Part shown: positions 6,668 to 58,092 of the stretch, in pieces
Numbering within the stretch: the first letter of the stretch is position 1
Layout of the letters: every line of letters starts with the position of its first letter
DNA from: a bacterium
Lineage (GTDB): Bacteria; Patescibacteriota; CPR2; UBA1875; JAJYID01
DNA length: 64,000 nt
Assembly (NCBI GenBank): GCA_021787535.1
Contig: JAJYLR010000001.1
Span: 492,321 to 556,320, forward strand
Direction of reading: 5' to 3'
The notes under the pieces: generated by a model
Told to the model about the DNA's origin: nothing
The model's database searches: none
The model's input: the letters and a program-made list of their open reading frames with translations, nothing else
Made by a program: the position numbers and the translations under genes

Positions 6668-6946
6668 ATGGTTACTTTTGTCGGCCTTATAGCGTCAATC
6701 TTAACAGCAAGCGGGCTCGTACCGCAGGTGGTTAAAGGATTTATCAGAAAAAAAGTTGAAGATGTTTCCATGCTTTTTATTGTAATAGGCGGAGTCGGTA
6801 CGTTTCTGTGGTTTGTCTATGGTATATTAATTATGAACGGAGTAATCATCTTTGCAAACTCTATTAATGCCACCTGTTATGCTCTAATGTTTTTGCAAAA
6901 GGGAATTTATAAAGAAAGGGTGATGGAATGTCAAAAAACAACCTAA
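6668..6946 (+). CDS. SemiSWEET/PQ-loop family small membrane transporter (3 TM)
   Basis: 92 aa, three hydrophobic helices, GLVPQVVK PQ-motif in TM1; overlaps scpB start by 19 nt. Confidence 0.55.
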   Translation: MVTFVGLIASILTASGLVPQVVKGFIRKKVEDVSMLFIVIGGVGTFLWFVYGILIMNGVIIFANSINATCYALMFLQKGIYKERVMECQKTT

Positions 6947-7446
6947 AATCACAAATCGAAAGCCTGCTGCTTGCCTCCGGGAAGCCTATTTCTTTAAAGG
7001 AAATGGCGCATATCATTGGACAAAGCATGGCCGATATTCAAAAAGAGATTAATTCTTTGACTCAAGAATATAGGGAACGGGGGCTTCGCATTATCAAACA
7101 AGGCGAGAGTTACTTCATGACAACAGCCGGAGAAAACGCGGAAACAGTCGCCAAATTTTTAAATGAGGAGTTGCGCTATGAACTGTCGCCGGCGGCGCTT
7201 GAAGTTCTGGCAATCATAGTTTACAGGCAGCCGATTACCAGATCGGAAATAGAGAATATTCGCGGTGCCGACTCGTCCAAACCACTCAGAACTTTGATGA
7301 TAAGAGGGTTGATTTGTGAAACCGGGCGAAAAGACGCTCCCGGCCGGCCAATTCTATATGGCACAACGGTGAAAATGATGACATATCTGGGAATAGAAGA
7401 CGAGGGACAACTGCCAAAGCTAGAAGAAGTATTACCAGCAACCTAA
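6928..7446 (+). CDS. scpB: segregation and condensation protein B
   Basis: SLLLASGKPISLKEMAHIIG ... tandem winged-helix ScpB pattern. Confidence 0.85.
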   Translation: MSKNNLKSQIESLLLASGKPISLKEMAHIIGQSMADIQKEINSLTQEYRERGLRIIKQGESYFMTTAGENAETVAKFLNEELRYELSPAALEVLAIIVYRQPITRSEIENIRGADSSKPLRTLMIRGLICETGRKDAPGRPILYGTTVKMMTYLGIEDEGQLPKLEEVLPAT

Positions 7447-7460
7447 TTGCCACCCGGATT

Positions 7461-7483
7461 GTCATTCTGGCTTGGCCAGAATC
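7461..7483. repeat. short palindromic repeat GTCATTCTGGCTTGGCCAGAATC (family A)
   Basis: inverted repeat ATTCTGGC/GCCAGAAT; family recurs >=12x in window. Confidence 0.7.
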
Positions 7484-7660
7484 AATATTTTCATTTGCCT
7501 TCACTTGTCTAAACCGAGGTAGGGAAGTGAATCTACCACACTTAATTATGAAGGGGTGAGGAATGCTTTGTTGCGTAATACTACACTAATATGTATTAGT
7601 GTAGTGGTGGCCTCTCTTTTTATCATTCCCGCACACACGAAGATCTATTATAATCAACTT

Positions 7661-8422
7661 ATGCGTATCAATAAGTACATTGCTTCTTGCACTAACTTAT
7701 CCCGCCGAAAGGCCGAGGTGCTGGTTTTGACGGGCAGAATAAAAATAGATTCTTCGCCTGTCATTCCCGTCCGCCGAGAGTCGGGTAAACATCCGGCGGG
7801 AATCCAGTCAACTGCTGAGACCGTAACAAATTTAGCCACTGAAGTTAGTCCTTCTGACAAGGTATATTTAGATGACAAATTGATTACTCCCCAAAGATTT
7901 GTTTACTATGCGCTTAATAAACCGGTTGGGTACACAACAACGACTTCCGACCCACATGCCGAGAAATTGATTACCAACCTCGTCCCAAATGATCCGCCCG
8001 TTTTTCCGATCGGCCGGCTTGACAAAGACACCTCCGGACTTATATTTCTCACAAATGACGGCGACTTCGCCCAGAAAATGACTCACCCAAAATACGAGAA
8101 AGAAAAAGAGTATATCTTCCAAACTGACCGAAAATTATCTGAGGAATCACTTGAAAAATTGCGAAAAGGAATTGAACTTGATGACGGCATAACCGCACCC
8201 GCAAAAGTTAAATCCCTTGCCAAGGGATGGACCCTTGGCAGTCATTCTGGCCCTGACCAGAATCTATATTCCATCACCATTCACGAAGGCCGAAACCGCC
8301 AAATCCGCCGAATGATTGATGCCGCCTGCGCAAAGGTGATCACTTTAAAGAGAATTAGAGTAGGGGATTTTGAACTAGGGGATTTAAAAGAAGGAAAATA
8401 TCAAATCTTCAAGCCAAAATGA
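7661..8422 (+). CDS. rluB: pseudouridine synthase, RsuA/RluB family with N-terminal S4 domain (carries two in-frame palindromic-repeat insertions)
   Basis: MRINKYIASCTNLSRRKAEVLV S4 motif; FPIGRLDKDTSGLIFLTNDG catalytic Asp motif; EGRNRQIRRM; start moved to MRINKY (ORF track extension upstream unsupported). Confidence 0.8.
   Translation: MRINKYIASCTNLSRRKAEVLVLTGRIKIDSSPVIPVRRESGKHPAGIQSTAETVTNLATEVSPSDKVYLDDKLITPQRFVYYALNKPVGYTTTTSDPHAEKLITNLVPNDPPVFPIGRLDKDTSGLIFLTNDGDFAQKMTHPKYEKEKEYIFQTDRKLSEESLEKLRKGIELDDGITAPAKVKSLAKGWTLGSHSGPDQNLYSITIHEGRNRQIRRMIDAACAKVITLKRIRVGDFELGDLKEGKYQIFKPK
7760..7805. repeat. palindromic repeat GTCATTCCCG...CGGGAATC (family B) inserted in-frame in rluB S4 domain
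   Basis: GTCATTCCCGTCCGCCGAGAGTCGGGTAAACATCCGGCGGGAATC; near-identical copy (rc) at 9212..9256. Confidence 0.7.
8241..8265. repeat. palindromic repeat GTCATTCTGGCCCTGACCAGAATC in-frame in rluB
   Basis: family A copy; translated as GSHSGPDQNL inside catalytic domain. Confidence 0.7.
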
Positions 8423-8424
8423 TC

Positions 8425-8447
8425 GTCATTCTGGCTTGACCAGAATC
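8425..8447. repeat. palindromic repeat GTCATTCTGGCTTGACCAGAATC (family A)
   Basis: 3 nt after rluB stop. Confidence 0.7.
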
Positions 8448-8476
8448 TTCTTTATTTTCTCGAAAATTTTGCTATA

Positions 8477-9188: not shown

Positions 9189-9211
9189 TCGTGGGATTTA
9201 TCCGCCAAATA

Positions 9212-9256
9212 GATTCCCACCGGATGTTTACCCGACCTTTGGCGGGCGGGAATGAC
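9212..9256. repeat. palindromic repeat family B copy (reverse orientation) plus partial GTCATTCTGAGTC copy at 9264..9276
   Basis: rc reads GTCATTCCCGCCCGCCAAAGGTCGGGTAAACATCCGGTGGGAATC, ~90% identical to 7760..7805. Confidence 0.65.
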
Positions 9257-9271
9257 AAAGGTGGACTCAGA

Positions 9272-10219: not shown

Positions 10220-10224
10220 TCATT

Positions 10225-10249
10225 GTCATTCCGGACTTGATCCGGAATC
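10225..10249. repeat. palindromic repeat GTCATTCCGGACTTGATCCGGAATC
   Basis: family member; tandem with next. Confidence 0.65.
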
Positions 10250-10265
10250 CAGGTTTATTAGTATA

Positions 10266-10290
10266 GATCCTGAATCAAGTTCAGGATGAC
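10266..10290. repeat. palindromic repeat GATCCTGAATCAAGTTCAGGATGAC (family, reverse orientation)
   Basis: rc GTCATCCTGAACTTGATTCAGGATC. Confidence 0.6.
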
Positions 10291-10299
10291 AGAAGAATC

Positions 10300-11727
10300 A
10301 TGTACAAAGTAGCACTGATCGGAAAACCAAACGCCGGGAAAAGCACTCTTTTTAACACTTTGCTTAAAAAGAGACAAGCTATTACCACAAATATACCCGG
10401 CACAACCCGCGACTGGAACGAAGAAGCCGCTTCTTTTGATGGCTCCCAATTTATTCTAGCCGATACGGCCGGCATAGAGCTAAAAGTTCCGAAAGGCGAC
10501 GAACTGAAAGAAAAGGCCTATAAGAAAATCCGGCAAAACTTAAGCACAGCTGATCTTTTTATTTTTGTGGCAGATAGAGAAACCGGTATCACAGAAGAAG
10601 ACCGAAAAATTATTAAAGAAGTCAGAAAATATGGCAAAGACATCTTGCTTGTCGTAAATAAAATTGACAGCCCGAGGAATAAGCCATCTTTGGCAGAGTT
10701 TCATAAACTGGGACTCGGCGAACCGCTTGGGGTCTCAGCCGAGCATAAAAGGGGAATCGAAAATCTTTTGAATGAGATACAGAAACGAATTCCTTCTCCT
10801 GTCATCCCGAGCGAAGCCGAGGAATCCCTTATTAATCGAGAGAGAAATGGATTTCTCCATTCGTCACTCCTTGATGTCAGTCGAAATAACAAAGAGATCA
10901 AGGTGTCTATTCTTGGCCGGCCAAATGCCGGGAAATCATCGTTTCTAAATAAACTGATTAATGAAGAAAAGTTCATCGTCAGCGATATACCGGGTACTAC
11001 GAGAGACGTGAATTCAACTTATCTCGATCATGAAGGCCAGGTAATTAAATTTCTAGATACAGCAGGTCTCAGGCGCCGGGGCAAGATAGGCAAAATGCCC
11101 GGTAAAGGCAAGGAGGGTCTCATAGAAAAGTTCTCCGCTGACCGTGTCAGAAAAACCTTGGAAGAGTCCGACATCGCGCTTTTAGTTCTAGATCCGACCG
11201 AACCGATAACTTCACAGGATCTGCACGTGGCGGGCTATATCAAAGATGCGTATAAGGGAATCATAGTAGTTGTAAATAAATGGGATCTGGCAAAGGAAGA
11301 AAAGCTGGCTCACGGATATGATACGGTTGAGAAGTTTTCTCGCCTCGCTCAGCATAAACTCGACTTCCTGCCGTATGCGCCTATCATTTTTGTTTCTTCG
11401 CTGACCGGTAAAAACGTTTCCAAAGTTTTGGATCTTATTCTGGAAATCAAAAAAAGACGAGAACAAAAGATTCCTACCAGCGATTTAAATAGTTTATTAA
11501 ATGAGTCAATGGCTAGAAAGAAGCCGCAAAGCGTAGATAAACATCAGGTCAATATAAAATACGCCACGCAAACAGGCGTAAACCCTCCAGAGTTTATATT
11601 CTTTGCAAACTATCCTCAAAAAGTGCATTTTTCATACCGCCGATTTCTGGAAAACCGCATTCGGGAAAAGTGGGGCTTCACCGGTACCCCGATAAGAATT
11701 ATTTTCAAATCAAAAAGTAAGCCATAA
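10300..11727 (+). CDS. der: ribosome-biogenesis GTPase Der (EngA), tandem GTPase domains + KH-like domain
   Basis: two P-loops GKPNAGKST and GRPNAGKSS, DTAG motifs, NKxD (NKID/NKWD). Confidence 0.9.
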   Translation: MYKVALIGKPNAGKSTLFNTLLKKRQAITTNIPGTTRDWNEEAASFDGSQFILADTAGIELKVPKGDELKEKAYKKIRQNLSTADLFIFVADRETGITEEDRKIIKEVRKYGKDILLVVNKIDSPRNKPSLAEFHKLGLGEPLGVSAEHKRGIENLLNEIQKRIPSPVIPSEAEESLINRERNGFLHSSLLDVSRNNKEIKVSILGRPNAGKSSFLNKLINEEKFIVSDIPGTTRDVNSTYLDHEGQVIKFLDTAGLRRRGKIGKMPGKGKEGLIEKFSADRVRKTLEESDIALLVLDPTEPITSQDLHVAGYIKDAYKGIIVVVNKWDLAKEEKLAHGYDTVEKFSRLAQHKLDFLPYAPIIFVSSLTGKNVSKVLDLILEIKKRREQKIPTSDLNSLLNESMARKKPQSVDKHQVNIKYATQTGVNPPEFIFFANYPQKVHFSYRRFLENRIREKWGFTGTPIRIIFKSKSKP

Positions 11728-12226: not shown

Positions 12227-12587
12227 ATTGTTTGGTGTTTTACTGAGCCCATTGTCACGAAAAGAGAATCCCGAATTTCAAAAAAAGAACGTGAGTTTGA
12301 TAAGATGCCAAACATGACCTTTACACTTTCTCCTCAGTTCTCGGCGCCTCGCCGCCGCTTTGCGTTTATGCGTTCAGGGGGCGCAGGATGAAAAAAATAA
12401 GTCGAGAAGGAGAGGAGAAAGAAGCAGCGATTTTTCCGCGGAGAATCGCTGCGAGCAGTGGGAATTTTGGCAACATGAAGTCGACCGCCAATCTCACTGC
12501 ACCTCGCAAGGGATAGTTTATTTATCTGCACATGGCGGATAAATTGTTCTTGCGGGGCGAAAGGGGCGCATATGCGCCCCTTTTTTT
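12227..12587 (+). ncRNA. candidate structured non-coding RNA (~360 nt), unidentified class
   Basis: bounded by consensus promoter and strong terminator; locally GC-rich (>55%) in AT-rich genome; multiple complementary segments (CTTTCTCCTC/GAGGAGAAAG; GCAGCGATT/AATCGCTGC 9-bp stem); no convincing ORF. Confidence 0.35.
12563..12587 (+). terminator. rho-independent terminator
   Basis: 18-bp perfect palindrome GGGGCGCATATGCGCCCC followed by TTTTTTT. Confidence 0.8.
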
Positions 12588-12588
12588 A

Positions 12589-12617
12589 TTTACTTGGATT
12601 AGCCAAAACGATAAAAT
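12589..12617 (+). promoter_or_regulatory. putative promoter TTTACT-N17-TAAAAT, leaderless (ATG 7 nt downstream)
   Basis: read directly. Confidence 0.35.
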
Positions 12618-12624
12618 ATTAATT

Positions 12625-13245
12625 ATGAAAGTAAAAACGCTTATAGTAGGATTAGGAAATCCGGGTGAAAAATACGAAAAAACCCGACATAATGCAGGAT
12701 TTATGGTGCTGGACGTGCTCTGCAATAATTTTAAATTTGAAAAAAAATTTAATGCGGAAGTTTGCCGGCTCTCCTCCTGTCATTCCCGCGAAGACGGGAA
12801 TCTAGATTCTGAACAAGCCAGAATGACAAATGAAGGAGATATTATTTTGATGAAACCCCAAACCTTCATGAATTTATCAGGCGAGGCAGTCCAATCTTTT
12901 GCCGGTTATTACAAGATTCAACCAGGAAATATTTGGATAATCCACGATGATATAGATATTCCGTTTGGAGAAATTAGAGTGAAAAAAGGCGGTTCTTCGG
13001 CCGGACATAAAGGAGTTCAGTCGATAATTGAAAAAATGGGCACAGAAGATTTTTGGAGGTTTCGAGTTGGCGTTAAAAATAATGATTTAGCAAGAATAGA
13101 AACTGAGGATTTTGTACTGCAAAGATTTAACCCTGATGAAGCAGGAGTTTTGGATAAAATAATAAATTTAGCTGCAGATGAAATAAAACTGTTTTTAAAG
13201 GAGGGAACACTTGAGGCAAAAACTCTAAAATTGAATAAAAAATAA
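12625..13245 (+). CDS. pth: peptidyl-tRNA hydrolase (with in-frame palindromic-repeat insertion)
   Basis: MKVKTLIVGLGNPGEKYEKTRHNAGF ... KPQTFMNLSGEAV Pth signature; ~20-aa insert CRLSSCHSREDGNLDSEQARMT encoded by repeat 12779..12827. Confidence 0.85.
   Translation: MKVKTLIVGLGNPGEKYEKTRHNAGFMVLDVLCNNFKFEKKFNAEVCRLSSCHSREDGNLDSEQARMTNEGDIILMKPQTFMNLSGEAVQSFAGYYKIQPGNIWIIHDDIDIPFGEIRVKKGGSSAGHKGVQSIIEKMGTEDFWRFRVGVKNNDLARIETEDFVLQRFNPDEAGVLDKIINLAADEIKLFLKEGTLEAKTLKLNKK
12779..12827. repeat. compound palindromic repeat GTCATTCCCGCGAAGACGGGAATC + TAGATTCTGAACAAGCCAGAATGAC inside pth
   Basis: two family members fused; in frame. Confidence 0.7.
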
Positions 13246-14641: not shown

Positions 14642-14653
14642 GTCCGCTCAATT

Positions 14654-14695
14654 GTCATTCAGACCGCTACCACTTTAGTGGAAAGTGGAGGAATC
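14654..14695. repeat. palindromic repeat GTCATTCAGACCGCTACCACTTTAGTGGAAAGTGGAGGAATC
   Basis: family termini with internal CCACTTT/AAAGTGG palindrome. Confidence 0.5.
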
Positions 14696-14772
14696 CCTCC
14701 CAAAAAAATAACCAATGACCAATTTCCAATATCCAACCAAATCCTAACTTTCAAATTATTGGAAACACAACT

Positions 14773-14796
14773 GTCATTCCCGCGAAGACGGTAATC
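14773..14796. repeat. palindromic repeat GTCATTCCCGCGAAGACGGTAATC
   Basis: one mismatch relative to copy in pth. Confidence 0.65.
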
Positions 14797-14856
14797 CAGA
14801 AAATGGCTTAGGCAATAAAAGATTCTCGTTTTTATGGCAATAACATAGTAGGAAAA

Positions 14857-17512: not shown

Positions 17513-17542
17513 TGGCTATATCGTGCAAAATATGAGCATTTT

Positions 17543-17570
17543 GTCATTCTGAGCGCAGCCAAAGAATTAG
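17543..17570. repeat. palindromic repeat GTCATTCTGAGCGCAGCCAAAGAATTAG
   Basis: family termini. Confidence 0.5.
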
Positions 17571-31110: not shown

Positions 31111-31236
31111 TTTAATCTCCTTTGTTTTTTGTTTTTAATCACCCTCCTTTAAGGTGTTTGTTTGTAAAATCGTTGTAATTGATGTATCGCTTCGCTTAAG
31201 GAAATGGCCTGTTTTCTTCCTTATAAACTTATTAAC

Positions 31237-33930: not shown

Positions 33931-34038
33931 TTTTTCTCCTTTACCCTTCCGTAGCTTTAGCGTAGGAGGGTCGTGGTCCAAACGGCTATCGCCTCCCACA
34001 TTAATTATAGTTCTCATTTTTAAGGGATTTCTCCGCTC

Positions 34039-34066
34039 GTCACTCCGTGAAGTCGGTCGGAATGAC
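34039..34066. repeat. palindromic repeat GTCACTCCGTGAAGTCGGTCGGAATGAC (family, reverse orientation)
   Basis: rc GTCATTCCGACCGACTTCACGGAGTGAC. Confidence 0.5.
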
Positions 34067-34115
34067 AAGCCTGAGATTATACTCAATACACAATACCGAA
34101 TACTCTATACTAACT

Positions 34116-35174: not shown

Positions 35175-35456
35175 TTACTTTAGTATAAACGATAAACCTT
35201 TTAATAAGACGAAATCGACAGCACCCAGAAATATTGCAACGGCTCCTGAAATGATGATAACGGCAATAGTCATATTCAAAGTAGTTCTTCTATCCGGCCA
35301 TACAACCTTCAGAAGTTCGTTTTTCGATTCTATGAAGTATTTTAAACTTTGCTTTACCTTTTTCATTATTTCCAACTGCCTCTTTAGAACATGGACTTTG
35401 TTATCCTTGTCGGAATTGTTGAATCGCTTCGCTTGCGGGAATTGTTTGTTGCTCAT
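35175..35456 (-). CDS. secE: preprotein translocase subunit SecE
   Basis: 93 aa, single C-terminal TM, KVVWPDRRTT motif, position upstream of nusG. Confidence 0.8.
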   Translation of the reverse strand: MSNKQFPQAKRFNNSDKDNKVHVLKRQLEIMKKVKQSLKYFIESKNELLKVVWPDRRTTLNMTIAVIIISGAVAIFLGAVDFVLLKGLSFILK

Positions 35457-37949: not shown

Positions 37950-38210
37950 TTATCGCCATTCCCTAGATATTAGCTTCAATTTTTTTTCATGTGACCACTT
38001 CTTAGCCTGTATTTCCCTTTGTCTAGCCTCTGATTTACTGCCAAAAGGTTGCGACACATAAACTAGCTCAAATGGTCCTTGGTCTACTGCAAATTTAGCG
38101 CCATTACCAGAGTTGTGCTTTTTAATTCTCTCCACCAGATCAGTAGTCATGCCCACATATAACCTATTTGTCCTCGCTTTAGCTAAATAAATATACCATG
38201 GTTTCATCAC
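37950..38210 (-). CDS. GIY-YIG nuclease family small protein
   Basis: WYIYLAKARTNRLYVGMTTDLVERIKKHNSG GIY-YIG motif. Confidence 0.7.
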   Translation of the reverse strand: MMKPWYIYLAKARTNRLYVGMTTDLVERIKKHNSGNGAKFAVDQGPFELVYVSQPFGSKSEARQREIQAKKWSHEKKLKLISREWR

Positions 38211-41360: not shown

Positions 41361-42175
41361 TATAACTCCATATTTAAAACTAAATTTTCTAAGACAAACT
41401 TAGCCGAAACGTTTGCCCTAAGGTAACCTCGCGATTTCTGTACCAGTTCCAAAGCTTTTATAATATTGCGTTCATTATCTTTATTCTGAAGCAGCTCGTT
41501 TCTTAAATCCATTTCCAGACTATCCAAAAGGTCTTTTGCTAAATTCTTATCCTTTGCATACCTTTGAATGATGGCAAATTTTTCAAAAATTTTTTTACTT
41601 TTACTAAAAATAGTCTGAAGCTCTTGATTGTCTATTTTATCAAATCCCACCTCGGCTTTTGTGCCAAAGTTGATCATCTGGCTTCTGGATGTAATCGTTT
41701 CCGGCAAAAGAGTTTTATCCGGGACAGTCATGATAATAACACTGTTTTCCGGCGGCTCCTCCAATATTTTCAGCATAGCATTGGCGCTTTCTTCGGTTAA
41801 AAAATGAGAATCTTTGATGATTGCGACCTTATGCGCAGCTTGATATGGCTTCAGAAACAAATTCCTCTGTAGATCTCTAATCTCGGCGATTTTAATCGCG
41901 CCTTCTCCGCCCAATTTAATTAAATCGGGATGATTGCCTGCCTCTATCAGCTTGCAATTTCTGCAAGTTGAACAAGCTGTATCGCTTCCCTCTGCACATA
42001 GAACAGCTTTTGCAAAGTCGAGAGCCGCGCCAAGTTTCCCGGTTCCTTCCTGCCCGGCAAAAAGCATAAAATGAGTAAACTCTCTGCTCCTCAGCTGATT
42101 TTTTAAATATTTATCCTGCACTATTTTTGCCATAACTTGTGATAAATTATAGCAGTTTATAGTTAAAAAATCCAT
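41360..42175 (-). CDS. holB: DNA polymerase III delta' subunit
   Basis: HFMLFAGQEGTGKLGAALDFAKAVLC + CSTCRNCKLIEAGNHPDL zinc module; alternative start MAKIVQ at 42133. Confidence 0.75.
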   Translation of the reverse strand: MDFLTINCYNLSQVMAKIVQDKYLKNQLRSREFTHFMLFAGQEGTGKLGAALDFAKAVLCAEGSDTACSTCRNCKLIEAGNHPDLIKLGGEGAIKIAEIRDLQRNLFLKPYQAAHKVAIIKDSHFLTEESANAMLKILEEPPENSVIIMTVPDKTLLPETITSRSQMINFGTKAEVGFDKIDNQELQTIFSKSKKIFEKFAIIQRYAKDKNLAKDLLDSLEMDLRNELLQNKDNERNIIKALELVQKSRGYLRANVSAKFVLENLVLNMEL

Positions 42176-47605: not shown

Positions 47606-47992
47606 TTAAGTTTTTGCTGCCGGTTTTTTCCTTCCACTTCCTACAGTAACTCGCTTGCTTCTTTTAGTTCTGGAATTTGTTTTTGTCCTTTGTCCTCTCA
47701 CAGGCAAGCTAAGTTTATGTCTTAATCCTCTGTATGTGCCAACTGCTTTTAATCTCTGAATGTTTTGGCTGGTTGCTCTTCTAAGCTCACCTTCTATAGA
47801 ATAATTTTTAGTAATATAATCCCTGAGCTTTGTAATCTCCGTATCCGTCAGTTCTTTGGTGCGTTTATCGGGACTAATCCCGGTATTTACCAATATCTTT
47901 TGGCTGCGAGTCAGTCCAATGCCATAAATATACTGAAGCGATGCTTCAATTCTTTTTTCTTCCGGTATATTTACTCCTGCTATTCTTGCCAT
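47606..47992 (-). CDS. rpsM: 30S ribosomal protein S13
   Basis: MARIAGVNIPEEKRIEASLQYIYGIG. Confidence 0.93.
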   Translation of the reverse strand: MARIAGVNIPEEKRIEASLQYIYGIGLTRSQKILVNTGISPDKRTKELTDTEITKLRDYITKNYSIEGELRRATSQNIQRLKAVGTYRGLRHKLSLPVRGQRTKTNSRTKRSKRVTVGSGRKKPAAKT

Positions 47993-48084
47993 TTTAATTT
48001 GTTGAGATTATTATATCGCTTCGCTTGTGGGAATTGTTTTTTCGTCTCCAACGTCTCGAACAGTTCCAACAACTCTAGTATTAT

Positions 48085-57111: not shown

Positions 57112-57396
57112 TTAAATCCCCTTAAACTCCTCAATCTTATCGCCTTTCTTAACAGTCACATATGCTTTCTTAAAATCCGATCTTTTGCCAAACTTTCTTC
57201 CTACTCTTTTTACCTTACCTTTCATAACAACTGTTTGAATATTTACAACTGTGACTTTAAAAAGTTTCTCAATTGCCTTTGCTATTTCAATCTTATTCGC
57301 ACGGCTATCTACCACAAAAACATATTTTCCTTCCTCAGCTTTTGCAAAACTTTTCTCGCTTATAACCGGCCTTTTTAAAATTTTTGTTGTTTCCAT
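57112..57396 (-). CDS. rplW: 50S ribosomal protein L23
   Basis: ILKRPVISEKS. Confidence 0.92.
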   Translation of the reverse strand: METTKILKRPVISEKSFAKAEEGKYVFVVDSRANKIEIAKAIEKLFKVTVVNIQTVVMKGKVKRVGRKFGKRSDFKKAYVTVKKGDKIEEFKGI

Positions 57397-58013
57397 TATT
57401 TATCCCCCTTAACTGATCCTAAAGAATTGCCTAAAAATACAATCTTTTTAGCCCAAAGCACATCGTAAACATTCATATTTTTCTTTACGCAAACCTTTAC
57501 TCCGGTTTTTAAATTCCTTAAACTTTTAGTAATTTTTTCATCTGATTCTTCTGTTACAACTAATACATTTCTGTCTAACCCTATTTTTTTAAATAAATCA
57601 GCAAATACCTTTGTAGAAGGTTTTTCAAGCTTTATTGCCTTTATCGCCAGGATATCTTCGTTTTTCTTCGTTGCAAGGGCCGCGGCCAGTGCGGCCTGGG
57701 CTTTCTTCTTTGGCATTTTCAGTTTGAAGCTTTGCTCGCCGGTCGGGCCAAATGTCACTCCGCCTCCGCGCCAAATAGGTGATCGGTTTGATCCTGCTCT
57801 GGCTCTGCCTGTGCCTTTCTGCCTCCACGGCTTCTTGCCTCCGCCTGAAACTTCGGACCTGTCAAGCGTGTTGGCCGGAGCTTGTCTTTTATTGGATGAA
57901 ATAATATAAACTGCCTCGGTCACAAGAGCCGGGTTGACTTTCCCGTCAAAAAGTTTGGTATTTAAACTTTCTGCCGTCTTTTTCCCTGTTTTATCGTAAA
58001 CTGCTACTTTCAT
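57396..58013 (-). CDS. rplD: 50S ribosomal protein L4
   Basis: GGGKKPWRQKGTGRARAGS. Confidence 0.93.
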   Translation of the reverse strand: MKVAVYDKTGKKTAESLNTKLFDGKVNPALVTEAVYIISSNKRQAPANTLDRSEVSGGGKKPWRQKGTGRARAGSNRSPIWRGGGVTFGPTGEQSFKLKMPKKKAQAALAAALATKKNEDILAIKAIKLEKPSTKVFADLFKKIGLDRNVLVVTEESDEKITKSLRNLKTGVKVCVKKNMNVYDVLWAKKIVFLGNSLGSVKGDK

Positions 58014-58092
58014 CTTACAATGTTTGAATTGTTGGATCGCTTCGCTTGCAGAAATTGTTTGTTTTCACCTTCCAACATTTCTTTCAACTCCT

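Follow-up and report, generated by a model that had tools for sequence, protein, structure and literature searches.

A probable pair of CGTC-tagged palindromic repeats inserted in frame in the peptidyl-tRNA hydrolase gene of a Patescibacteria genome

In a 64-kb stretch of a candidate phyla radiation genome (CPR; Patescibacteria, WS5-like; contig JAJYLR010000001.1, positions 492,321 to 556,320; hereafter the window), the gene pth, encoding peptidyl-tRNA hydrolase, carries an in-frame compound palindrome. We consider it probable, at roughly 80%, that this insert is a heterodimer of small CGTC/TGTC-tagged hairpins of the repetitive extragenic palindrome (REP) type, joined with their tags outward, and that these are elements of the DNA level whose encoded peptide is a by-product. 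The units would spread or be copied around the genome, singly or as dimers; a copy arriving in a coding region would survive only in a tolerant surface loop or linker, with the frame kept and no stop codon; the pair in pth, at the tip of the beta2-beta3 hairpin, would be translated as a disordered loop of about 20 residues that leaves the catalytic fold intact; and the hairpin DNA would be kept similar by ongoing copying, by gene conversion, or through recognition by a sequence-specific factor.

An earlier note, made from the letters of the window, had likened the palindrome to a Rickettsia palindromic element (RPE), and this reading is supported: the architecture is that of the CGTC-tagged REP superfamily, which holds the R. 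conorii elements RPE-4 and RPE-6 (PMC3733652). The kind is already known, as intragenic dimers of this repeat class have been described since 2000-2013. What is new is the CPR host, a CPR unit nearly identical to the Neisseria Transformation Sequence (NTS), the re-use of one Pth loop with different unit sets in seven lineages, and a DNA-level conservation that exceeds that of synonymous sites.

A compound palindrome inserted in frame in pth

The open reading frame (ORF) containing pth occupies positions 12532-13245 of the plus strand, with a sensible start at the ATG at 12625 (MKVKTLIVGLGNPG...). The coding sequence so defined (12625-13245) specifies 206 amino acids including the insert, and its product matches Pfam PF01195 (E=1.6e-60) and TIGR00447 (E=1.6e-59); among NCBIfam models at E <=0.1 the pth model alone was found, with no RPE-domain model. 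Protein and codon alignments delimit the insert to codons R48-T68 (RLSSCHSREDGNLDSEQARMT; 12766-12828, plus strand), that is, 63 nt or 21 residues that keep the reading frame and are without counterpart in the 185-residue orthologues. The gain of about 20 residues by an ORF that runs through the repeat, as put forward in the earlier note, is therefore accurate (20-21 residues), and the inserted peptide quoted there is the right segment except for its leading cysteine, which is the native C47, nearly invariant in an alignment of 24 orthologues.

Positions 12778-12828 form the compound palindrome itself, bounded by the outer inverted-repeat arms TGTCATTC (12778-12785) and GAATGACA (12821-12828). 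Inside these arms are two hairpins, ATTCCCG-CGAAGA-CGGGAAT (ATTCCCG/CGGGAAT at 12782-12801) and ATTCTG-AACAAGC-CAGAAT, each the core of a unit consisting of tag, stem, loop, stem and tail. Unit A (12778-12805, plus strand) is TGTC-ATTCCCG-CGAAGA-CGGGAAT-CTA and is read CHSREDGNL, its stem in pth being 7 bp owing to a G-to-A change; unit B (12803-12828, minus strand) is TGTC-ATTCTGG-CTTGT-TCAGAAT-CTA, with the plus-strand reading DSEQARMT. The two stand tail to tail with tags outward and as the core of the insert span 12778-12802 (A) and 12804-12828 (B); the repeat is thus compound, as the earlier note had it, and made of two units in inverted orientation.

Pattern scans find at least 14 units with a common tag, stem base and tail between 1 and 17.6 kb of the window, and a strict family pattern has 9 matches in the window against 0.32 per shuffled window. 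A single mismatch separates the 25-mer of unit A from a second copy at 14772, a recurrence for which the expectation is 0.00. The predicted RNA folding energies are -9.2 kcal/mol for unit A, -4.8 for unit B and -15.1 for the pair, with z-scores against dinucleotide shuffles of -2.65, -3.0 and -2.9, respectively. Because of the 25-mer recurrence, the excess of the family over shuffles and these z-scores, the palindrome in pth is not attributable to chance. A longer outer palindrome around the insert (CTCTCCT...AGGAGA) is probably coincidental, its right arm being native loop (NEGD, the homologue of xDNEx in relatives).

The insert lies in a surface loop

The closest orthologues of the protein were sought among 5.8 billion proteins, and the best 24 were aligned; they show 57-66% BLASTP identity (63-71% over aligned columns) and come from metagenome-assembled genomes of Patescibacteria and 'candidate division WS5'. 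Seventeen of the 24 are about 185 residues long and have no residues at the insert site, while the other seven carry related units there. Between C47 and the [VI]LMKPQTF strand there are 26 residues in the Pth of the window and 6 in the insert-free orthologues, so the insert does fall, as proposed, between the GLGNPG...RHNAGF and KPQTFMNLSG blocks. The accompanying remark on a short loop, made there for E. coli Pth, is best referred to the insert-free orthologues of this clade, since other bacterial Pth can have a longer native hairpin at this site than the clade does, as sequence alignment shows for the M. tuberculosis enzyme.

An AlphaFold2 model built on the same alignment (mean pLDDT 82.5, pTM 0.83) has only one long stretch below a pLDDT of 50, residues 52-70, situated between the strands 44-48 and 73-78. 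The model thus places the insert in a surface loop, where it would form a disordered extension of the turn between beta2 and beta3. Superposition of the remaining residues on solved Pth structures gives TM scores of up to 0.88 (e.g. 2z2i and 8x5u), and the Pth fold is accordingly predicted to be kept despite the insert.

Insertion polymorphism among relatives

Loci of relatives (labelled L081 and upwards), obtained through exact-protein look-ups, share the conserved gene order HK-RR-asnS-scpA-scpB-rluB-dacB-der-pth-dprA-topA, and five different unit sets were found at their pth site. The window and L081 carry units A and B; L083 carries both, and there the loop of B has taken up a further hairpin of 21 nt (giving a 26-nt interior) that leaves the frame intact; L084 and L086 have B alone, beside degenerate sequence; L087 has one unit of another type (FLDSSLHEVARND), and L089 this same type together with a 45-nt-type unit; L091 is empty. 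Unit B sits at the identical pth position in the window, L081, L083, L084 and L086, and all filled sites terminate in ...GAATGACA at one codon position. The RPE-like reading depends on repeat-free relatives having no equally long segment at this site, and in L091 and L092 (39 kb) none is present: pth is uninterrupted and family copies number zero, whereas every insert-bearing relative has several. As a negative control, 482 kb around distant Pth loci (<=46% identity) gave 3 loose matches.

Other genes of this cluster are polymorphic as well. Units in rluB, a pseudouridine synthase gene, occupy three sites in differing combinations across five genomes. At site 1 the window has an in-frame 45-nt-type unit (VIPVRRESGKHPAGIQ; 7759-7806, plus strand), L086 has a different, 24-nt unit, and L087, L089 and L091 have none; site 2 is filled in L089 alone; at site 3 the in-frame unit of the window (SHSGPDQNL; 8240-8266, plus strand) is replaced by a different insert in L089; and rluB of L087 and L091 is free of units at all three. 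The gene der has an in-frame two-unit insert in the GD1-GD2 linker (PVIPSEAEES...GFLHSSLLDVSRNN; approximately 10797-10893, plus strand) that is common to the window and L082 and is not in L083, L086, L087, L089 or L091; L083 has a private VPTVIPAKAGIHTKSK insert in GD1, and four of these genomes are without either der insert. Outside genes, a heterodimer at 10224-10291 between dacB and der, made of units at 10224-10251 (plus) and 10264-10291 (minus) with a 12-nt spacer, recurs with its spacer at L086 2256-2325, a non-orthologous site between different genes. Finally, a metagenome scan found the A/B junction in frame in an unrelated membrane-protein-like ORF (L096), and again in L097, another sample's copy of the L081-type pth. 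From the insertion polymorphism in pth, rluB and der we conclude that the elements move or get copied, and the recurring heterodimer and A/B junction lend this further support; every intragenic copy seen (in pth, rluB, der and the scpA of L089) preserves the frame. The scpA product of L089, with 253 residues against 228-229 in relatives, appears to carry a long-interior unit in frame.

A neighbour-joining tree of Pth with the insert left out is poorly resolved, with carriers interleaved with non-carriers; the insert-free P0012 is sister to the carriers P0005, P0007 and P0011 with 93% support. This interleaving and the placement of P0012 require several gains or losses at one Pth loop.

As a separate observation, positions 6935-7740 of the window and 5857-6672 of L089 form an 817-nt alignment of 87% DNA identity that covers scpB, the spacer including the unit at 7460-7485, and the 5' end of rluB, while other genes of the two are about 65-70% identical in DNA (as measured for pth). 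The alignment has the appearance of a tract that was recently recombined or transferred; on the right it stops about 20 nt before the rluB unit at 7759, which L089 does not have.

Conservation of the DNA rather than the peptide

The same units are read in several frames. Unit type 1 is translated CHSRE(G/D)GN in pth and CHSLEGGN in the rluB of L089, and VIPAKAGI in the der of L083 and VIPEKSGI in the rluB of L086; the 45-nt type yields VIPxRxxSGKHPAGIQ in rluB, where it is in forward orientation, and DSRRMFARPLAGEND in the pth of L089, where it is reversed. Between genomes, third-codon-position identity is 82-89% in shared pth inserts and 41-55% (near saturation) in the pth core; for the window and L081 the values are 0.89 and 0.41. 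This variety of frames, together with third-position identity above that of the core, indicates that the conserved entity is the DNA and not the peptide. Judging from these comparisons, the insert DNA is probably held similar either because copies are, or recently were, copied or converted from one another, or because the DNA is recognised, and not by selection on the peptide.

The repeat family across the window

Apart from the copies within genes, the units of the window are intergenic and mostly lie directly 3' of stop codons, as at 7460-7485 (plus strand; directly 3' of scpB), 8424-8449 (plus; beginning 2 nt past the rluB stop codon) and 14653-14698 (plus; a long-interior unit directly 3' of the dprA stop codon). 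The unit A copy with one mismatch in its 25-mer occupies 14772-14799 (plus; intergenic, after dprA), and a degenerate unit at 17542-17570 (plus) lies 3' of topA. Minus-strand units stand at 981-1010 (intergenic) and at 9210-9257, the latter of the 45-nt type and upstream of a dacB-like gene. Thirteen of the 15 GTCATTC/GAATGAC heptamers are below 17.6 kb, and the sole clear copy beyond that point is an isolated 'FLDSSLREVARND'-type unit (34030-34068, minus strand) between rplK and the core of rplA.

All units of the strict list start GTCAT, with a preceding base that is mostly T or C (A at 8240). A looser census, which includes chance hairpins, counts 34 TGTC, 12 CGTC, 7 GGTC and 6 AGTC tags, and 18 CTA and 9 CCA tails. 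The stems (e.g. ATTCCCGC/GCGGGAAT and ATTCCGGA/TCCGGAAT) are 7-9 bp long and all begin AT, and the loops of most units are 3-7 nt, with 4 or 5 commonest. A long-interior subfamily has 23-28 nt there instead (window 7759 and 9210; L081 1949; L089 5134, 6748, 9908 and 10155). The long interiors (L083 4771-4817; L089 5134-5184 and 9908-9957; L081 1949-1998) are either hairpins nested in the loop or 23-28-nt interiors with ...ATAAAC(A/T)YCC in common, which suggests that units grow by insertion into their own loops.

Several further observations concern the surroundings of the units. In units of the window and of L081-L089, the TGTC tag is preceded by 8-10 nt with a strong excess of pyrimidines (CTCCTCCT, TTCTTCCTCC, CCTTCTT, TTCCCTCCTT), which may belong to the element or reflect a target preference; where a reversed copy lies upstream of a gene, as before dprA in L081, this flank resembles a Shine-Dalgarno sequence, AAGGAGG. 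The cumulative GC skew climbs to about 22 kb and then falls steadily, and gene orientation flips from plus to minus in the same place (22-24 kb), a pattern typical of a terminus-like region in which replication forks converge; nearly all of the hairpin units are found on the plus-skew side of the window, and most are plus-oriented. The ORF of ribosomal protein L1 (33097-34086, minus strand) has 328 codons, yet the Pfam L1 domain begins at residue 133, and a hairpin unit lies in the extension or spacer, so that the rplA N-terminal extension is probably an over-extended ORF call produced by a stop-free repeat; similar artefactual extensions are seen in the rluB ORF (7556, against a true start at 7661) and the dacB ORF (9179). 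Rfam searches of the window at gathering thresholds returned five tRNAs only, none at the repeats. In addition, a motif of about 25-53 nt (...GTTGnAATTGTTGnATCGCTTCGCTTGCGGGAATTGTTTGTT, plus strand) occurs in five copies (31161-31213, 35398-35450, 41967-41991, 47990-48042 and 58011-58063), confined to the half of the window with minus-strand genes; the copy at 58011 abuts the ATG of the gene at 57396-58013, and the motif may be a shared promoter or 5' leader.

Relationship to known repeat systems

The CGTC-tagged REP superfamily was defined by a CGTC tag (often TGTC, also CCTC), a stem of 8-9 bp starting from A-T, T-A pairs, a loop of 4-5 nt, a 3-nt tail fitting CCA, frequent dimers and no dedicated transposase; most copies lie just downstream of genes, while the intragenic copies, mostly dimers, encode 20-30 residues (PMC3733652). 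In that classification, by Di Nocera, De Gregorio and Rocco (BMC Genomics 2013), Neisseria dRS3 and R. conorii RPE-6 are CGTC-1 and RPE-4 is CGTC-4, and pseudouridine synthase genes are repeatedly hit (PMC3733652). The units of the window agree with this definition in tag, stem, tail, dimers, downstream location and lack of a transposase; the inverted dimers at 10224-10291 and 12778-12828 are heterodimers, and a pseudouridine synthase gene, rluB, is hit here too. They differ in their host, which is outside the five phyla of PMC3733652, in the 23-28-nt interiors of some units, in stems that are often AT-richer (ATTCTGG), in the pyrimidine-rich 5' flank and in their strong clustering. Tagged hairpins GTCATTCCCGCAGGCTTCTGGCGGGAATCCAT, GTCATGCCCGAATGCCTTTGTCGGGCATCCAG and GTCATGCTGAACTTGTTTCAGCATC were also seen in a deltaproteobacterial and another Patescibacteria genome (L042 625-653 and 5888-5916; L031 5364-5388), consistent with the wide phyletic spread reported for the repeat class.

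About half of the dRS3 copies have been redefined as the 28-nt NTS, CGTCATTCCCGCGMAVGCGGGAATCYRG, which SsnA, a 94-residue GIY-YIG nuclease of family cd10448, binds and cuts as single-stranded DNA; its gene is typically flanked by the motifs (Nat Commun 2025, PMC11893778). Unit A (TGTCATTCCCGCGAAGACGGGAATCTAG) departs from the NTS 28-mer at two positions, and with the SRM search motif of that study, HGTCWYN(0-2)YYVSBRHN(0-5)WNVSBRGN(0-2)RNCYNB (PMC11893778), it gives a match at 12778-12805 where 0.07 per shuffle are expected, while the other unit types give none. Oriented hairpins, a conserved GTC upstream and C downstream, and genomic clustering are further likenesses. In contrast to the Neisseria system, no cd10448 ssnA gene was identified in the window, and a limited term search of PMC11893778 found no in-frame intragenic copies.

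Elements of the RPE-1 type, as summarised in PMC10969869 from Ogata et al. (2000, 2002), are about 100-150 bp long, encode a conserved peptide family apiece and occur in Rickettsia only. Like these, the repeats of the window are in-frame palindromic selfish DNA in conserved and often essential genes, would be translated as an additional surface segment that the fold accommodates, and are polymorphic among relatives (PMC10969869); unlike them, they are modules of 24-46 nt (the whole pth insert being 63 nt) that are variously combined and read in several frames. REPINs carry a GTAG tag, are almost exclusively extragenic and are mobilised by RAYT transposases (Bertels and Rainey 2011, PMC3116915). 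They resemble the present repeats in that the apparent moving unit is an inverted hairpin doublet with a spacer (window 10224-10291 and L086 2256-2325) and that sequences persist in lineages, but the tag here is TGTC/CGTC and no RAYT was seen in the window. Literature searches on palindromic and miniature inverted-repeat elements in CPR/Patescibacteria turned up no paper that describes such repeats there. As relatives, Coxiella QMITE1 and QMITE2 were rejected, being miniature inverted-repeat transposable elements of 190-400 bp and of a different family. A DNA-uptake sequence was discarded as well, the copies being confined to 17.6 kb of 64 kb and their cores variable, and the anatomy alone rejects a CRISPR, an integron attC site, an intron or an intein, given irregular spacing, the wrong boxes conserved and elements that are too short.

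Search for a mobilising or recognising enzyme

By analogy with these systems, the enzyme that mobilises or recognises the units could be an Ssn-type GIY-YIG nuclease of single-stranded DNA or a borrowed transposase. The genes that adjoin units in the window are dacC-like, scpB, rluB, dacB, der, pth, dprA, topA and hypothetical ORFs without Pfam match; among the unit-adjacent ORFs and ten further ORFs scanned, no transposase domain, including Y1_Tnp, was found. This lack agrees with the CGTC-tagged REPs having no dedicated transposase (PMC3733652).

A single small GIY-YIG ORF is present in the window (37950-38210, minus strand; 85 residues, one domain, PF01541 E=5e-16), between tRNA genes and without adjoining canonical units. 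Among solved structures it comes closest to UPF0213 proteins (1zg2, E=1e-13; 1ywl, E=2e-6), which we take to be a CDD family different from that of SsnA, so that it is not demonstrably an Ssn (cd10448) protein, and it has 8 homologues only in the large protein collection. Of two loci that hold homologues, L093 has no units and L094 has two TGTC-tagged units (1323 and 2235), neither adjoining the GIY-YIG gene. Being UPF0213-like, without flanking units and without repeat association in L093 and L094, the ORF, examined as a candidate cognate nuclease, was rejected as evidence for an Ssn system. Upstream of it is an atypical GTC-tagged 9-bp inverted repeat, ATTCGACTC...GAGTCGAAT, whose interior of 68 nt begins directly behind the 3' end of a tRNA. 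On the distantly related contig L094, the only Y1_Tnp gene seen, of IS200 type (PF01797, 127 residues), lies at 11183-11566, 0.9 kb from the GIY-YIG homologue.

Alternative explanations

A further explanation, which we hold to be possible and on balance unlikely, is that the units are functional cis-elements for an Ssn-type GIY-YIG nuclease that limits the recombination of incoming DNA in natural transformation, the pth copy being a working part of that system. The closeness of unit A to the NTS and its SRM match, the conservation of the positions critical to SsnA (5' GTC, 3' C), a clustering as non-random as that of the NTS, conservation of the DNA above synonymous sites, the presence of dprA within the unit cluster and the end of the 817-nt, 87%-identity alignment with L089 about 20 nt before the rluB unit at 7759 all speak for it. 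Yet no cd10448 Ssn gene was found in the window, whose single GIY-YIG ORF is UPF0213-like and lacks flanking units; L093 has no units and those of L094 are not next to the GIY-YIG gene; most unit types of the window fail the SRM pattern; the coincidence of a recombination tract with a unit is a single case; and Patescibacteria are not mentioned in the Ssn paper (PMC11893778). The stronger proposal, suggested by motif identity and by one recombination-tract boundary, that CPR genomes run an NTS/Ssn-like system in which even the intragenic units of pth, der and rluB are nuclease sites bounding transformation recombination tracts, strikes us as improbable. If it were true, the loops of Pth, Der and RluB would be re-used because new units are recruited beside existing ones, and the end of the 87%-identity alignment before the rluB unit would be a footprint.

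That Pth gained the insert adaptively, perhaps as a new interaction loop kept for the role of its peptide, seems very unlikely and is already largely refuted. Its recurrence at exactly one loop in seven related lineages, and its retention in an essential gene of a very small genome, speak for it. However, different lineages have unrelated peptides at the site (CHSREGGNLDSGQARMT, FLDSSLREVARND, DSRRMFARPLAGEND), set by the palindromic DNA and its frame; 17 of the 24 close orthologues are insert-free and scattered among the carriers in the tree; the model predicts disorder for the region; and third codon positions are as conserved as first and second ones, the opposite of selection at the peptide level. 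Still less credit is due to the idea that the 63 nt go untranslated, either because they are cut out of the mRNA or because the ribosome skips them, and that mature Pth has its canonical 185 residues. The stable RNA structure of the segment (-15.1 kcal/mol) would suit it, but there is no Rfam match at the segment, we know of no intron or bypass signals for such elements, and the intragenic copies, in five genes and seven genomes, are all multiples of three and stop-free, including the 21-nt nested addition of L083. Translation is the only reading that expects this constraint, and we therefore infer that the insert is translated. It would also be functionally neutral. Least probable of all is an error of assembly or binning, in which a repeat was collapsed into pth or unrelated pieces were joined at a repeat. 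Short repeats can seed misassembly in metagenome-assembled genomes, and the reads of the window are not open to inspection; against this, the sequence on either side runs collinear with an intact pth, the frame is unbroken, the der-pth-dprA-topA synteny is kept in all relatives, and an artefact is made unlikely by orthologous inserts in independent assemblies of different samples and pipelines (L081 from JGI, L082 from Logan and L097 for one species; L084 and L085, two ENA assemblies, for another).

The interpretation as tagged REP hairpins also has points that weigh against it. Target-site duplications were sought around the pth insert and none was detected, and the window yielded no enzyme that would mobilise or recognise the units. 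Oddly, the copies keep to its first 17.6 kb, which simple random transposition would not predict, and the 64 kb viewed belong to a genome of at least 636 kb. Frame conservation is the one line of evidence for translation of the insert, and the Pth tree cannot separate an ancient insertion followed by losses or turnover from repeated insertion at a hot spot.

Implications

As read here, tagged hairpins of the dRS3/NTS/RPE-4/-6 class have colonised a CPR lineage (Patescibacteria, WS5-like) with a very small genome, where even essential genes of translation and ribosome assembly tolerate them. In metagenome-assembled genomes, inserts of this kind make protein sequences longer and more varied. They also give rise to spurious 'hypothetical' ORFs and N-terminal extensions, of which the rluB, dacB and rplA ORFs are examples, and can mislead marker-gene alignments and phylogenies. 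A CPR unit nearly identical to the NTS raises the question whether Ssn-type nucleases or another common enzyme act on such repeats across distant phyla. The pth alleles, with no insert, one unit, two units or a nested unit, make up a compact natural series in which the growth and decay of a repeat inside a protein can be followed.

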